A DNA stretch of 42,918 nucleotides from a phage: NCBI GenBank assembly GCA_025726505.1, contig GCA_025726505.1_4340.1; one strand, 5' to 3'. A program made the position numbers and the translations under genes. The notes beneath the pieces are model-generated. The model was not told the DNA's origin. It was given only the letters and a program-made list of their open reading frames with translations, and made no database searches. Shown piece after piece: positions 7,827 through 42,867 of the stretch. Position 1 is the stretch's first letter, and each line of letters starts with the position of its first letter.

Positions 7827-7856
7827 TTGACAACATGAATAGTTAGCTATTATAGT
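7827..7856 (+). promoter_or_regulatory. Sigma70-like promoter with overlapping palindromic operator
   Basis: TTGACA (7827-7832), 18-nt spacer, TATAGT (7851-7856); spacer contains AATAGTTAGCTATT (7838-7851); 32 nt upstream of ATG 7888. Confidence 0.55.
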
Positions 7857-10170: not shown

Positions 10171-10199
10171 TTGACACCTGAATAGTTAACTATTATAGT
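10171..10199 (+). promoter_or_regulatory. Sigma70-like promoter with perfect palindromic operator
   Basis: TTGACA (10171-10176), 17-nt spacer, TATAGT (10194-10199); spacer contains perfect 14-bp palindrome AATAGTTAACTATT (10181-10194). Confidence 0.6.
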
Positions 10200-10945: not shown

Positions 10946-13219
10946 ATGAGTTATCTGTTCTTAGACTTTGAAACCTTCTCCGAAGCCGATTTGAAGAAAG
11001 TCGGCTCCTATGCTTACGCCGAACACCCGACTACCGAAGTGCTCATCTGCACCTATGCTTTTGATGACGAGCCTGTTCAGGTATGGGACTGCACTGACGG
11101 CAGCGACATGCCGGGAGATTTACACCGCGCGTTACGCCGTCTGGTGAAGCCAAACAGTCGCATTAAGATGGTGTGGCACAACGGCTCAATGTTCGATAGG
11201 CTCATCATGAAGCACTGCTGGGGCTTTGAAATCCCCGTAAGCAACACCATTGATACTATGATTTGGGCGTTTCGTCACGCGCTGCCGGGGTCTCTTGATG
11301 CGTTGTGCGAAGTGTTGGGTGTATCTGCGGACAATGCGAAAGACAAACGCGGCAAGGCGCTGATTCAGCGTTTCTCTAAACCGACGCCGAAGAACTACAA
11401 AATCCGCCGTTACACCGCAGAAACACACCCGGACGAGTGGGCGCTGTTCATCAAGTACGCCGTGAGTGACATCACTGCGATGCGTGAAGTCTTTCATAAG
11501 CTACCGCGGTGGGGTAACTCCGAGTTCGAAGACCGTGTACTGGAACTGGACCAGTTAATCAATGACCGGGGCTTTTTTGTTGATACGGCTCTTGCTGAGG
11601 CGGCGGTAGCGGCAGTGGAACGCCACAAGCAAGAGCTAAAAAACGAGGCCCGCGCAAAATTCGGGGGGAAACTAACGGGCAAAGATTTCCTGCCAATCCT
11701 TCGGGAACTGGCACCGGCTTACGATATCTATAATGCGCAGAAAGCAACGCTAGAGGGTTTGCTAGAGGATGACGACCTGCCTGATGATGCACGTACAATC
11801 ATTGAGATGCGCCTCGGCGCGGCCTCCACGGCGTCAACAAAATATAAGCCGCTCCTGCTAGGACGGTCCAAAGACGGACGACGCCGTGGTTGCATCCAGT
11901 ATGGCGGCGCGAAGCGCACTTTACGATTCGCGGGTAAAGGGTTTCAGCCGCAGAACCTGTCGCGCGGGTACTACCACGACGACCCGACTAACGAGGAAAA
12001 GAAACTTGTACGTCAGCCGTGGGAGTCCGACGAAGACTGGAACCGCAGGCTTAACCCGTTATCATTCGGCATCAATTTGCTTTTAAAGGGTCGGGCGCAT
12101 CGCCGCTTCGATGTATCTAAACTGACGGCCTCGACAGTCCGCAGTTGCATCATCCCAGAAAAAGGCAATAAGTTGCTCGTTGCTGACTACTCGAACGTGG
12201 AAGGGCGCGGGTTGGCCTGGACGGCGGGGGAGACGTCCGCTCTTGAGACGTTCCGCGCGGGGATTGATATCTATTGCGCCACTGCGGGCAAGATGTTTGG
12301 TATGGATCCTATTGAGCTTAAAGCCATCCGTAAGGACCTACGTCAGGTCGGGAAATGTTGCGAACTCGGCCTCGGCTACGAGGGCGGCGTAGGAGCTTTC
12401 ATGACTATGGCTAAAACTTACGGGCTGGACCTCTTTAAAATGACGGAGACAATGCGAGGTACGTTCCCTGACCATATATGGGCCGCCACTGCCCGAGGAT
12501 ACGAATGGGCGCGGATTCAGGAGGCTAAGCGGCCCCCAAAACCCGGTAAAAAAGATGAACGGGCCTCTTATGTGCTGCCTAAAGAAGTGTGGCGCACCTG
12601 CGATGCTATCAAGCGCATGTGGCGCGAGGCCCATCCGGAAACAGTTAAATTCTGGAAGGACCTTAAGGATTCGGTAATTGCCGCAATCAGAAACCCAGGA
12701 CGAGAGTTTTGGGCGGGGGCCAGAGTCCGCCTTAACGGCGACAGAGCTATTCGCATCTGGCGTACTAAAGAGAAAGACAGACAGGGTAACTTTGTGCCGG
12801 GTTGGTGGTTGTGCGTGGAACTGCCGTCTGGGCGCATCATGTCCTACCCTGGTATAGGCTTAAGCGTCACTAAAGAGACTGACGAGGATGGGCGCGTAAC
12901 AACTAACGTTCGCATTAAGTACCAGGGCGAAAATCGGACCACCCGCCAGTGGACAACTTTGTACACCCACGGCGGAAAATTGTGTGAAAACATCATCCAG
13001 GCGTTGTGCCGTGACTTACTAGTTAACGGACTCCTGACGGTCGAGGCAGCGGGCTACCCGATTGTGCTCCACGTACACGACGAATGTGTGGCTGAAACGC
13101 CAGATACGCCGGAGTACACGGTTAAAGAGATGGGCGACCTGCTATGCGCATTACCTGAATGGGCTGAAGGGTTCCCGTTAACATGGGCTGGGGAAGAGGT
13201 GTACCGCTATGCTAAGTAA
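10946..13219 (+). CDS. Family A DNA polymerase with 3'-5' exonuclease domain
   Basis: Exo motif LFLDFETFS at N-terminus; polymerase motif A LLVADYSNVEGR, motif B RKDLRQVGKCCELGLGYEGG, motif C VLHVHDECV. Confidence 0.9.
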   Translation: MSYLFLDFETFSEADLKKVGSYAYAEHPTTEVLICTYAFDDEPVQVWDCTDGSDMPGDLHRALRRLVKPNSRIKMVWHNGSMFDRLIMKHCWGFEIPVSNTIDTMIWAFRHALPGSLDALCEVLGVSADNAKDKRGKALIQRFSKPTPKNYKIRRYTAETHPDEWALFIKYAVSDITAMREVFHKLPRWGNSEFEDRVLELDQLINDRGFFVDTALAEAAVAAVERHKQELKNEARAKFGGKLTGKDFLPILRELAPAYDIYNAQKATLEGLLEDDDLPDDARTIIEMRLGAASTASTKYKPLLLGRSKDGRRRGCIQYGGAKRTLRFAGKGFQPQNLSRGYYHDDPTNEEKKLVRQPWESDEDWNRRLNPLSFGINLLLKGRAHRRFDVSKLTASTVRSCIIPEKGNKLLVADYSNVEGRGLAWTAGETSALETFRAGIDIYCATAGKMFGMDPIELKAIRKDLRQVGKCCELGLGYEGGVGAFMTMAKTYGLDLFKMTETMRGTFPDHIWAATARGYEWARIQEAKRPPKPGKKDERASYVLPKEVWRTCDAIKRMWREAHPETVKFWKDLKDSVIAAIRNPGREFWAGARVRLNGDRAIRIWRTKEKDRQGNFVPGWWLCVELPSGRIMSYPGIGLSVTKETDEDGRVTTNVRIKYQGENRTTRQWTTLYTHGGKLCENIIQALCRDLLVNGLLTVEAAGYPIVLHVHDECVAETPDTPEYTVKEMGDLLCALPEWAEGFPLTWAGEEVYRYAK

Positions 13220-13340
13220 ACTTATTATCGCGGTACTGGCGGGATTCGCCGCCGGTGTCCACTGCCACGAGGGTCAATACAGCATGATGGCCGCCGTACT
13301 GGGCATGTTCATCGCAATTTATCTGTGGGTGCTGGAATGA
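13209..13340 (+). CDS. Candidate 43-aa membrane micro-protein
   Basis: ATG overlaps polymerase 3' end; hydrophobic product; stop overlaps next ATG; below track cutoff. Confidence 0.3.
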   Translation: MLSKLIIAVLAGFAAGVHCHEGQYSMMAAVLGMFIAIYLWVLE

Positions 13341-13426
13341 AAATTTACTGGTTCTATGAAGAAGACTGTCGAATCTGTCCGCGCTGTGGGATTGAGCATA
13401 CGAAACGGGAGGAGTGCGTATTATGA
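13337..13426 (+). CDS. Candidate 29-aa zinc-ribbon micro-protein
   Basis: MKIYWFYEEDCRICPRCGIEHTKREECVL; ATGA-coupled at both ends. Confidence 0.3.
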   Translation: MKIYWFYEEDCRICPRCGIEHTKREECVL

Positions 13427-13575
13427 CAATGCTTGTATTTTGGACGATAGTAACCATGCTCGCACTTCTACTCGGTGCGGGAATAGCCGCGATGTTCTGC
13501 TATGGCCTGTTCTTTAATTTTGTCGGTGTTGCCGTTCTGGGCGGGGCATTTATAACTTGGGTTCTGCGCTCATGA
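13423..13575 (+). CDS. Candidate 50-aa membrane micro-protein
   Basis: Two hydrophobic segments; ATGA-coupled to the VRR-NUC gene. Confidence 0.3.
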   Translation: MTMLVFWTIVTMLALLLGAGIAAMFCYGLFFNFVGVAVLGGAFITWVLRS

Positions 13576-13886
13576 CCCCGGAAGGAAAAATACAGAAATA
13601 CGCAAAAGAGCGATTCGAGGCCATCGGGGGCCTCGTCCGTAAACTGTCTTATGAGGGGCGCTCCGGCGCTCCCGACCTGCTGGTAATTCTCCCGGGCGGC
13701 ATCGTCTGGTTCGTCGAGGTGAAGAAAGACGAAAGCACGAAGCCTGACCCACACCAGTTACGAGAGCATGAGCGGATGCGTAAACGTGGCGCAAATGTTT
13801 TTGTCGTTGGTTCGATAAAACAGATTGACACCCTAATAGCAGACTATTATAGTAAGCACATACCCCAACAATATAAGGAATTATAA
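13572..13886 (+). CDS. VRR-NUC domain nuclease
   Basis: PD-(D/E)xK core GAPDLLVILPGGIVWFVEVKK...REHERMRKRGANVFVV; start at ATG 13572 (track start 13557). Confidence 0.75.
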   Translation: MTPEGKIQKYAKERFEAIGGLVRKLSYEGRSGAPDLLVILPGGIVWFVEVKKDESTKPDPHQLREHERMRKRGANVFVVGSIKQIDTLIADYYSKHIPQQYKEL

Positions 13887-41908: not shown

Positions 41909-42100
41909 CTACCCCACTATCTCATCACCTAGCCACGCCGTTTCTCGTATATCGTCGACCACACAAGCGGCGTGCTCCCGGCTAATTGCAAAAATGTAGA
42001 AGCTGAACTTCTTCCCGTCGGCGTCGATGTGGTTAACCGAGTATGGTTTCCACAGGACGCCATCAATGACTACTGGTTCAGGCGCTTTCATACCCATCAC
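41909..42100 (-). CDS. Hypothetical protein
   Basis: 63-aa ORF in early-left operon. Confidence 0.45.
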   Translation of the reverse strand: MMGMKAPEPVVIDGVLWKPYSVNHIDADGKKFSFYIFAISREHAACVVDDIRETAWLGDEIVG

Positions 42101-42275
42101 CAGGGGCTTTGTTCAGATTAAAGCGGTTAATCAGTTCACGGCGCGTCTCGTAAAGCGACTCTACCATTTGCTCAGCTACGGCAATTTTAGTATTCAGGAC
42201 GTACATAACGCGCCCGATGTCTACACCGCCGTTAACAGCCTCTACCATCATCTTTTCGTAGTCGCGGTCAGTCAT
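42078..42275 (-). CDS. Hypothetical protein
   Basis: 65-aa ORF in early-left operon. Confidence 0.45.
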   Translation of the reverse strand: MTDRDYEKMMVEAVNGGVDIGRVMYVLNTKIAVAEQMVESLYETRRELINRFNLNKAPGDGYESA

Positions 42276-42429
42276 TTTTACGCTCTCCCCACATGCGATT
42301 GAGATACTTGTTCTTGTCCGGCCCCGGGAAACTGTTACGTTTCATCAGTTCCTCGCGTGTCGGGAACGGGGTGTGACTAACTTTACGGCCTACTCGTAAT
42401 GGCTGGCTGATTGGTGTTTGTTCGCTCAT
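42268..42429 (-). CDS. Candidate 53-aa hypothetical protein
   Basis: ATG 42429 overlaps upstream stop; below track cutoff. Confidence 0.3.
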   Translation of the reverse strand: MSEQTPISQPLRVGRKVSHTPFPTREELMKRNSFPGPDKNKYLNRMWGERKND

Positions 42430-42614
42430 TCAACAATCTCCCATTTAACACCGTGTGCGTCTTTTCCACTGTCAACAAGACCAATCACCTCTTCCCCTCC
42501 GTCTCCGACCAGAACTACAAGTCTGGAGCCGGGTATGAATGCATCGCACGTATAAACCTTACCTTCGGTAACATACCCGCATGACTTGTCTACTTCGACC
42601 GCTTTAACTTTCAT
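42426..42614 (-). CDS. Hypothetical protein
   Basis: 62-aa ORF; GGAGAG RBS. Confidence 0.5.
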   Translation of the reverse strand: MKVKAVEVDKSCGYVTEGKVYTCDAFIPGSRLVVLVGDGGEEVIGLVDSGKDAHGVKWEIVE

Positions 42615-42760
42615 TTCTTCTCTCCTGCATAAGCTGCTTTCAGTGCCTGCATCGCGGCAGCCCAGAACGCGTCGGCCGGGATATTACCGCTCAGGTTACC
42701 AACGGCGATGCGTGCCATCAGTTGCGCGTCTTCGAATGCATCGATATCTGTGATTTTCAT
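42611..42760 (-). CDS. Candidate 49-aa hypothetical protein
   Basis: ATG 42760 with AAGGAG RBS; ATGA overlap with next gene. Confidence 0.35.
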
Positions 42761-42867
42761 TTCCCAAACACTCCTTTAGTTTTCAGATTATGGCGGTAGA
42801 ACTGCATCACATGTTCGTTATGGAAGTTACTCATCTTCTCTACTCCGTTCTCGCTGTCGATGGAGTA

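Follow-up and report, generated by a model that had tools for sequence, protein, structure and literature searches.

A chain of three small, ATGA-linked ORFs that separates the DNA polymerase gene from the VRR-NUC gene in a Kagunavirus-like phage

By direct reading of a 42,918-nt stretch of phage DNA (the window), we observe that the 352 nt between the stop codon of a DNA polymerase gene (TAA at 13217-13219) and the start of a VRR-NUC gene are occupied by three small open reading frames, o1, o2 and o3, and comparison with related loci makes it very probable that these are real, translated and modular genes. This reproduces the coordinates of the initial annotation, where three ORFs of 43, 29 and 50 codons were described as joined head to tail by ATGA in a gap of about 350 bp. 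The source phage is a virulent, Kagunavirus-like siphophage (Guernseyvirinae), and the three genes are not new: Escherichia phage SZH-1 (RefSeq QCF74_gp39, gp40 and gp41), BUCT789 and Bas76 carry the same genes, annotated as hypothetical proteins, and their products have been placed in PHROG families without a recorded function. In the annotated Guernseyvirinae copies the genes are 132, 90 and 153 nt long, with an order between polymerase and VRR-NUC and with overlaps identical to those of the window, and the window copies are 88-97% identical to them with no structural difference. Searches of the literature returned no paper on these genes or on their expression. Taken as a whole, our explanation, i.e., real modular micro-genes together with a route of coupled translation and roles for the peptides, is in our judgment likely. 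The region comprises the following features.

10946-13219, plus strand: polymerase gene, family A, 757 aa, from the ORF list; annotated as DNA polymerase I in relatives, with a homologue (L061) that has Pfam DNA_pol_A
13209-13340, plus strand: o1, 43 aa, MLSKLIIAVLAGFAAGVHCHEGQYSMMAAVLGMFIAIYLWVLE, phrog_10404; two short hydrophobic segments flanking an invariant polar loop
13337-13340, plus strand: ATGA junction of the o1 stop and o2 start, by direct reading
13337-13426, plus strand: o2, 29 aa, MKIYWFYEEDCRICPRCGIEHTKREECVL, acidic/basic and Cys-rich, phrog_38225
13423-13426, plus strand: ATGA junction of the o2 stop and o3 start, by direct reading
13423-13575, plus strand: o3, 50 aa, hydrophobic and almost uncharged, phrog_14925; accessory module
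13572-13575, plus strand: ATGA junction of the o3 stop and VRR-NUC start, by direct reading
13572-13886, plus strand: VRR-NUC / PD-(D/E)xK nuclease gene with a product of 104 aa and an ATG that overlaps the o3 stop; matches to phrog_93 and phrog_5702

With VRR-NUC as the last, the chain has four links, and o1 overlaps the polymerase gene by 11 nt in a different frame. A polymerase-o1 frameshift fusion was dropped as a candidate, since the o1 frame contains a stop 9 codons upstream of the o1 ATG. The VRR-NUC product matches the profiles of phrog_93 (endonuclease, 6.8e-33) and phrog_5702 (Holliday junction resolvase), and its Pfam VRR_NUC score is 17.4 bits, under the cut-off of 23.8. Overlaps of 4 nt account for 26 of the 68 same-strand gene pairs (38%) in SZH-1, and because ATGA joins this share of pairs the chain is not unusual; such coupling is the rule among these phages.

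All three frames are open across about 50 related loci, with no internal stop in any of the 38 (o1), 29 (o2) and 20 (o3) unique related nucleotide sequences, and the variable sites within them are concentrated at third codon positions. In-frame pN/pS is 0.225 for o1, 0.093 for o2 and 0.203 for o3, similar to the flanking genes (VRR-NUC, 0.19; polymerase C-terminus, 0.175), and is 0.98-2.7 in the two other forward frames across o1-o3; these values were pooled over non-independent pairs from a recombining group and are descriptive. The initial annotation had argued from the tight coupling that the frames are translated, and had proposed a comparison of synonymous and nonsynonymous change in related genomes; judged by this pattern of substitution, each frame shows purifying selection at the protein level, with ratios of about 1 or more off frame, and translation is supported both by these ratios and by the open frames. 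Protein length is nearly always exactly 43 aa for o1 (64 metagenomic clusters) and 50 aa for o3 (100 clusters), some of the rare length variants being in-frame indels, and the products match their PHROG profiles over positions 1-43 of 43 (o1, E 1.2e-29), 5-32 of 36 (o2, E 1.2e-20) and 1-50 of 50 (o3, E 4.1e-32). Frames broken by indels in close relatives would have told against these genes, but the frameshifted or fused forms of o1, o2 or o3 that do occur are rare, being found in a few metagenome clusters with mostly 1-3 member sequences, and fall short of refutation.

There is next to no probability left for the reading that these are fortuitous ORFs in non-coding DNA, or that the genuine gene is read in a different frame, i.e., a 53-aa ORF at 13356-13517 on the plus strand or an 81-aa ORF at 13212-13457 on the minus strand. 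Both of these frames are open in the window, and the plus-strand one is stop-free in 14 of 16 relatives; however, its start codon is lost in 8 of the 16 and it is shortened in other architectures, while internal stops interrupt the minus-strand ORF in 11 of the 16, and pN/pS in the alternative frames is 1.4-2.7. Chance is further opposed by dinucleotide-preserving shuffles of 13209-13575, just 3 of 5000 of which contained a chain of three or more ATGA-linked ATG-ORFs with a minimum length of 20 codons, and Rfam gave no RNA family match in the window.

A search of related genomes found o2 in about 445 of the 448 related records (at least 60% identity), with the ORF left unannotated in many Jerseyvirus records, o1 in 224 phage records and o3 in 121. 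Among 52 loci we identified 11 architectures, always cut at ORF boundaries and with the start/stop overlaps retained; for example, the o1/o2 junction ctggaATGA is retained in nearly all o1-bearing loci. In some relatives, other micro-ORFs or HNH endonuclease genes occupy the slot between polymerase and VRR-NUC. At the level of sequence, these comparisons show o1, o2 and o3 to be discrete modules that relatives have or lack as whole ORFs, with exact boundaries, and show the polymerase/VRR-NUC junction of Guernseyvirinae to behave as a plug-in slot open to both micro-genes and homing endonucleases. The three ORFs of 29-50 codons, dropped by length cut-offs and omitted from many GenBank records, o2 especially, are genes under selection, a result with little importance beyond annotation quality, and one that leaves current understanding unchallenged.

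We analyzed the regions immediately upstream of each start in the chain, and the flanks of the presumed transcription unit, and identified the following elements.

10171-10199, plus strand: promoter-like TTGACA-N17-TATAGT with an internal palindrome; consensus match only
13195-13201, plus strand: Shine-Dalgarno-like AGAGGTG for o1, 7 nt 5′ of the o1 start, within the last polymerase codons
13407-13416, plus strand: strong Shine-Dalgarno GGGAGGAGTG for o3, embedded in the o2 3′ end; anti-SD dG about -8.5
13825-13853, plus strand: next occurrence of this promoter-like element, within the VRR-NUC 3′ end; consensus match only

The promoter-like element at 10171 probably starts a unit ssb-pol-o1-o2-o3-VRR-NUC, and the next copy marks the likely end of the micro-gene transcription unit, with no convincing promoter or terminator found between 13219 and 13572; the micro-genes belong to the middle (replication/recombination) transcription unit. 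At o1, each of the three sequence variants of the context gives an anti-SD duplex with a dG between -6.6 and -7.1, the background having a mean of -1.9 and a 5th percentile of -6.1. Weak Shine-Dalgarno sequences (SDs) are found at the o2 start (about -3.6 to -3.7) and at the VRR-NUC start behind o3 (-3.1), and in relatives without o3 the junction alignment places the VRR-NUC start directly behind the strong SD in o2. A downstream start that lacks an efficient ribosome-binding site, as in a coupled pair, is present at o2 and VRR-NUC, and not at o1 or o3.

Based on these signals, o1 would be initiated from its own SD, buried in the last polymerase codons, and o2 would be reached by reinitiation through the ATGA overlap, because its SD is weak. 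Ribosomes would then load for o3 on the strong SD inside the last o2 codons, so that coupling is not needed for o3, and VRR-NUC, the SD of which is also weak, would be reached by reinitiation through the last ATGA. The starts of o2 and VRR-NUC would thus probably depend on ATGA reinitiation, and by this route the chain in this genome would also deliver ribosomes to the nuclease gene. We consider the route o1 to o2 to o3 to VRR-NUC to be moderately probable. Coupling by stop/start overlap (ATGA termination-reinitiation) occurs in bacterial and phage operons, a textbook example being trpB-trpA. The chain, with its putative coupling, resembles textbook pairs in its 4-nt ATGA overlap, its presumed single mRNA and the weak SDs at o2 and VRR-NUC, and differs from them in that o1 and o3 have good SDs of their own and in that such overlaps are commonplace in these phages.

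The same signals could be taken to mean that the ORFs are a translation relay and nothing else, passing ribosomes from polymerase to VRR-NUC and setting its expression, with peptides that are inert. The weak SDs and ATGA overlaps at the o2 and VRR-NUC starts would fit this, as would the start/stop overlap with its neighbours that every module in the slot keeps, and the dispensability of o1 and o3 in many relatives. A relay would, however, leave the amino acids unconstrained, yet the micro-genes vary freely at synonymous sites and have pN/pS values of 0.09-0.23, and invariant polar residues are retained (YCHEGQYG in o1; E8, E9, D10, R12, C14, K23, R24, E25 and C27 in o2). It is also unneeded in the o3-less relatives, where VRR-NUC starts behind a strong SD, and we regard it as very unlikely.

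Under our preferred reading, that o1, o2 and o3 are genes whose peptides have roles of their own, the roles that we propose are tentative. The initial annotation described two of the peptides as hydrophobic, and this holds for o3 (GRAVY 1.79) and o1 (GRAVY 1.36), which rank first and third among the 165 ATG-ORFs with lengths of 25-70 aa that the six frames of the window contain. The invariant loop Y-C-H-E-G-Q-Y-G of o1 lies between hydrophobic segments of about 14 and about 17 residues. The single charged residue of o3 is R49, residues 2-48 being uncharged, and its AlphaFold model is one continuous helix from residue 2 to 49 (pLDDT 92.6) with no hairpin; an uncharged, hydrophobic, helical segment of bilayer length, as expected of small membrane proteins, is present. 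Searches of o1, o2 and o3 against Pfam, NCBIfam and PDB sequences gave nothing significant. We infer that both o1 and o3 would be dispensable helical peptides embedded in the membrane.

By analogy, the two peptides would most probably work at the host inner membrane in an accessory capacity, e.g., by excluding competing phages or modulating a host membrane protein, and a function in replication is less likely. Small phage inner-membrane proteins made before lysis include T4 Imm and Sp and HK97 gp15, which act in superinfection exclusion; phi29 p16.7 is a small phage inner-membrane protein of membrane-associated replication. Like these proteins, o1 and o3 appear to be short, strongly hydrophobic and helical, are located with early/middle genes and vary in presence among close relatives; unlike them, they are smaller, with essentially no soluble part, and share no sequence similarity with them. 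The strong hydrophobicity and helical character of both peptides, and their Gly/Ala-rich helix faces (in o3, LLLGAGIAA and VGVAVLGGAF), could also be expected if o1, o3 or both were holin-, pinholin- or antiholin-like membrane proteins that time lysis, but this we hold to be highly improbable: both genes are in the replication operon between polymerase and VRR-NUC and do not adjoin an endolysin gene, the holin-like, lysozyme and spanin genes of SZH-1 are annotated elsewhere in its genome, the charged C-terminal tail is absent (o1 ends in WVLE and o3 in WVLRS), and the PHROG and Pfam searches matched no holin family at E up to 1.

The second peptide, o2, is of a different kind, with Cys residues at positions 11, 14, 17 and 27 and a single recognizable motif.

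13376-13390, plus strand: CPRCG knuckle motif of o2, residues 14-18, by direct reading

The CxxCxxC...C pattern on which the initial annotation based a "mini zinc ribbon" is present, as is the CPRCG knuckle, but the ribbon itself is not borne out, since a zinc ribbon has two knuckles (CxxC ... CxxC) and o2 has the sole knuckle C14-P-R-C17-G, with no second CxxC pair and with C11, H21 and C27 isolated. Among 27 unique variants, C14 and C27 are present in all 27, C17 in 26, H21 in 25 and C11 in 23, with C11 replaced in the other 4. The AlphaFold model of o2 is of low confidence (mean pLDDT 58.4) and has no strands. Its PDB matches are weak and non-significant (best E 0.21), and all of them fall on zinc knuckles or ribbons, e.g., COX5B (...CPRCG, E 0.33), Nop10 and S27ae. 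A phmmer search with the 33-aa GTG-extended o2 frame against 1.84 billion representatives returned only two same-family clusters and one spurious repeat protein, and thus revealed neither remote relatives nor informative fusion partners. On its residue pattern, o2 is probably a cytoplasmic Cys/His knuckle peptide (CPRCG with C11, H21 and C27) that binds a metal ion. Micro-proteins with a CPxCG zinc finger include Brz of Halobacterium salinarum (PMC2253796), and small zinc-finger proteins are described in Haloferax (PMC10117724). With these, and with the knuckles of COX5B, Nop10 and S27ae, o2 shares a tiny size, a C-P-x-C-G knuckle and four to five potential Cys/His ligands; it differs in having one knuckle where that group has two CxxC-type pairs, in showing no significant sequence similarity to them, and in being phage-encoded, with putative metal ligands, whereas the compared proteins are archaeal or eukaryotic.

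Because o2 is nearly universal in the subfamily, we infer that it may be the functionally important core of the slot. That o2 combines with o1, o3 or both and with VRR-NUC or polymerase into a module that anchors DNA processing to the inner membrane is, in our view, unlikely. The genes form one operon, in fixed order and adjoining polymerase and VRR-NUC, and rare natural fusions link o2 either with o3 or with the leading hydrophobic segment of o1 (P0161, P0164, P0077 and P0092); in addition, a distant locus (L053, VRR-NUC 46% identical) has a 69-aa hydrophobic ORF that is ATGA-coupled upstream of VRR-NUC. However, o1 and o3 are missing from at least half of the relatives that retain o2, polymerase and VRR-NUC, and two other distant loci (L052 and L059) have no such hydrophobic ORF. 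The fusion clusters hold 1-3 sequences each, and the one examined, the o2-o3 fusion P0077, is a one-base change, an extra G in a GAGGGG run in a single Logan contig, that is possibly an assembly error. A corresponding proposal is that o2 is an unrecognised core factor of Guernseyvirinae replication/recombination, perhaps acting with VRR-NUC or polymerase, and that o1, o3 and the 23/25-aa hydrophobic variants are alternative membrane anchors for it, so that the slot would encode a modular, membrane-tethered micro-protein complex; the fusions and the hydrophobic ORF of the distant locus hint at it, but it is decidedly unlikely. Guernseyvirinae-type phages have been widely suggested as therapeutics for E. 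coli and Salmonella, a setting in which o2, a nearly universal orphan, and the variable, putative membrane peptides would make sensible small targets in knockout and exclusion assays.

A similar chain of 25-65 aa ORFs, noted previously at 42078-42834, is also present in the window, and is located on the minus strand.

41909-42834, minus strand: coupled small ORFs of 25, 49, 62, 53, 65 and 63 aa, the first resembling T4 Stp, with PHROG matches

From 42834 to 42078, the ORFs of 25, 49, 62, 53 and 65 aa overlap by 4, 4, 4 and 8 nt, with the 63-aa ORF (42100-41909, minus strand) coming next, and their PHROG matches are to phrog_6763 (1.1e-19) and four other families. Just upstream of this chain, at 42896-42868, is a sigma-70-like TTGACT-17-TATATT, recognized by consensus match only.

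Between the DNA polymerase gene and the predicted VRR-NUC nuclease gene, direct reading shows the three ATGA-coupled micro-ORFs (o1, o2 and o3) described in the initial annotation, with ATGA overlaps at the o1/o2, o2/o3 and o3/VRR-NUC junctions:

10946-13219, polymerase ORF (direct reading)
13209-13340, o1, 43 aa, starting 11 nt before the polymerase stop in a different frame
13337-13426, o2, 29 aa, MKIYWFYEEDCRICPRCGIEHTKREECVL
13423-13575, o3, 50 aa, with a single charged residue
13572, start of the VRR-NUC nuclease gene

A chain of three such ORFs, each of at least 20 codons, is found in 3 of 5000 dinucleotide-preserving shuffles of 13209-13575. The two peptides claimed to be hydrophobic are o3 and o1, which rank first and third in hydrophobicity among the 165 small ATG-ORFs in the six frames of the window.

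We compared this region across 55 IMG/VR loci around VRR-NUC homologues and four GenBank loci. No internal stop is present in any of the unique nucleotide versions (38 for o1, 29 for o2 and 20 for o3), and their pooled pN/pS in frame is 0.225, 0.093 and 0.203, respectively, versus 0.98-2.7 for the same alignments in the other two forward frames. Third codon positions of the genes hold most of the variable sites, and the flanking genes give a pN/pS of 0.19 (VRR-NUC) and 0.175 (polymerase C-terminus). In a collection of 5.8 billion proteins, relatives of o3 (100 clusters) almost always have a length of exactly 50 aa and those of o1 (64 clusters) almost always 43 aa. Among the exceptions, most of which come from clusters with one to three members, are in-frame indels (+GFA, +AV, -14 aa) and frameshift fusions. 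These data show that o1-o3 are real genes under purifying selection; the frames are open with low pN/pS in all three when synonymous and nonsynonymous changes are compared among relatives, which supports the earlier claim that such tightly coupled frames are translated. Since the amino-acid sequence is constrained, the proposal that the micro-ORFs are a pure “ribosome relay” is contradicted.

Two other ORFs were rejected as genes: one of 81 aa on the minus strand is interrupted by stops in 11 of 16 relatives, and a 53-aa plus-strand ORF, which lacks purifying selection, has lost its start in 8 of 16. Rare fusions occur in metagenome assemblies, joining o2 to o3 (79 aa) or o1 to o2 (72-73 aa), as seen in locus L061 (1501-1740) and proteins P0077, P0092, P0161, P0164, P0165 and P0001. 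The one that we traced, in one Logan contig, results from the gain of one G in the GAGGGG run at the o2/o3 junction, and may be either an assembly artefact or a genuine variant.

Among 52 close loci, the slot between the polymerase (pol) and VRR-NUC (VRR) genes takes 11 architectures:

pol-o1-o2-o3-VRR, 17 loci
pol-o1-o2-VRR, 13 loci
pol-o1-o2-o4-o3-VRR (o4, an extra 64-aa ORF before o3), 5 loci
pol-o2-VRR, 5 loci
pol-o1-o2-o4-VRR (o4 replaces o3), 3 loci
pol-o2-o3-VRR, 2 loci
o3 position held by a 25-aa hydrophobic ORF, 2 loci
o3 position held by a 165-aa HNH endonuclease gene, 2 loci
o3 position held by a 23-aa hydrophobic ORF, 1 locus
HNH gene between polymerase and o1, two architectures, 1 locus each

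Start/stop overlaps form the module boundaries in all architectures, and o1-o3 are shown to be modular. The seven Jersey-type loci without o1 (pol-o2-VRR and pol-o2-o3-VRR) carry an in-frame deletion of o1, so that its first seven codons (MLSKLII) and Shine-Dalgarno sequence (SD) now start o2. Some relatives carry free-standing genes for HNH endonucleases of 231, 171 and 165 aa (L017, 453-1148; L042, 765-1280; L043 and L046, 1008-1505) between polymerase and o1 or at the o3 position, with start/stop overlaps with their neighbours, which makes the polymerase/VRR-NUC junction a hot spot for insertions. A further 63-64-aa module (MSNKPFSKKLAALVDMPEWEF...CAGCTHKG...), absent from the window, is present in the slot of 8 of the 52 loci (L008, 1161-1355; also L009, L019, L036, L038, L039, L045 and L047), with a weak, sub-threshold match to the Pfam A2L zinc ribbon (E 0.0047).

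In a 50,697-record phage collection, about 445 records carry o2 at ≥60% identity, 224 carry o1 and 121 carry o3, every one from Guernseyvirinae, and a DNA search with the region returned 448 records. These counts, together with an exhaustive phmmer search for o2 among 1.84 billion representatives that found two o2 clusters only, point to o2 as a subfamily-wide orphan and to o1 and o3 as accessory.

Pfam and NCBIfam searches with the three peptides gave no match. An invariant polar loop, YCHEGQYG, is flanked by two short hydrophobic stretches in o1, and o3 is Gly/Ala-rich, uncharged from residues 2 to 48, and modelled by AlphaFold as a confident helix (pLDDT 92.6), continuous and not a hairpin. 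The mini zinc ribbon proposed for o2 is a sequence pattern: its CPRCG motif is a classic zinc knuckle, and C14 and C27 (27/27 unique variants), C17 (26/27), H21 (25/27) and C11 (23/27) are conserved, but a second CxxC pair is absent. Residues E8, E9, D10, R12, I13, R16, G18, T22, K23, R24 and E25 are invariant. All PDB matches of o2 are non-significant, and include zinc knuckles/ribbons (COX5B, Nop10, S27ae, RanBP2 finger) and unrelated proteins; its AlphaFold model is uninformative.

We propose that o2 would be a small metal-binding cytoplasmic peptide of importance to all these phages, and o1 and o3 dispensable membrane peptides which, by analogy with other small early/middle phage membrane proteins, would most likely target host inner-membrane factors or exclude competitors. 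A role in lysis is unlikely, because of the location of the genes and because the related RefSeq phage SZH-1 has separate lysis genes. A minority possibility is that the peptides and VRR-NUC form a joint complex tethered to the membrane; the rare micro-ORF fusions and a VRR-NUC-coupled hydrophobic ORF in the distant locus L053 hint at this. This 69-aa ORF (1295-1504, GRAVY 1.36) has a stop overlapping the VRR-NUC start by ATGA and may be a counterpart of o3 by position; L053 is a high-GC distant phage contig, with a VRR-NUC 46% identical. The VRR-NUC of the window (13572-13886, +) scores 17.4 bits against Pfam VRR_NUC, below the 23.8 cut-off, and has a PD...EVK motif and strong matches to PHROG endonuclease and Holliday-junction-resolvase families.

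The micro-genes are shown to be arranged for coupled translation. Whichever of its three sequence variants the polymerase 3′ end has, an SD-like sequence precedes the o1 start (anti-SD duplex energy, dG, -6.6 to -7.1; background 5th percentile -6.1), and a strong SD, GGGAGGAGTG (dG about -8.5), formed by the last o2 codons, serves o3; in relatives without o3 it directly precedes the VRR-NUC start. The SDs of o2 (dG -3.7) and of VRR-NUC behind o3 (dG -3.1) are weak, and o2 and, in the window genome, VRR-NUC would depend on reinitiation after termination at the ATGA overlaps.

Neither a terminator nor a promoter above chance level was found inside 13219-13572. An extended promoter-like element, TTGACA-N16-18-TATAGT, occurs in three copies by consensus match, versus 0.04 expected by chance:

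7827-7856, +, copy 1
10171-10199, +, copy 2
13825-13853, +, copy 3, inside the 3′ end of VRR-NUC

Together these suggest that the micro-genes are probably on the transcript from 10171, with an ssb-like gene, the polymerase and VRR-NUC. All three copies have an AATAG...CTATT palindrome between both hexamers, and resemble phage promoters that are regulated through an operator.

The region shares 96.7% identity with Kagunavirus LM02P1 and 82-94% with about a hundred Escherichia phages, and also matches several hundred Salmonella Jerseyvirus records, which on sequence grounds places the window among the virulent siphophages of the Guernseyvirinae subfamily. In the related phages BUCT789, SZH-1 (gp39-41) and Bas76, all three ORFs are annotated as hypothetical proteins with identical lengths and overlaps (two of the three in LSPA1), and o1, o2 and o3 give full-length matches to PHROG families 10404, 38225 and 14925, families with no assigned function. 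These are thus genes of a known kind that had been annotated before, and the observation made in the window was correct.

In SZH-1, overlaps of exactly 4 nt join 26 of the 68 pairs of neighbouring genes on one strand, and 26 of its 81 genes have products of ≤65 aa; ATGA-coupled micro-gene chains are therefore normal in genomes of this type. The other chain reported in the window is real: its six ORFs lie on the minus strand (42834->41909), and five match PHROG families. The first, of 25 aa (42757-42834, -), matches phrog_6763, “activator of host PrrC lysyl-tRNA endonuclease” (T4 Stp family; E 1.1e-19), and a sigma-70-like site lies just upstream of this chain at 42896-42868 (consensus match).
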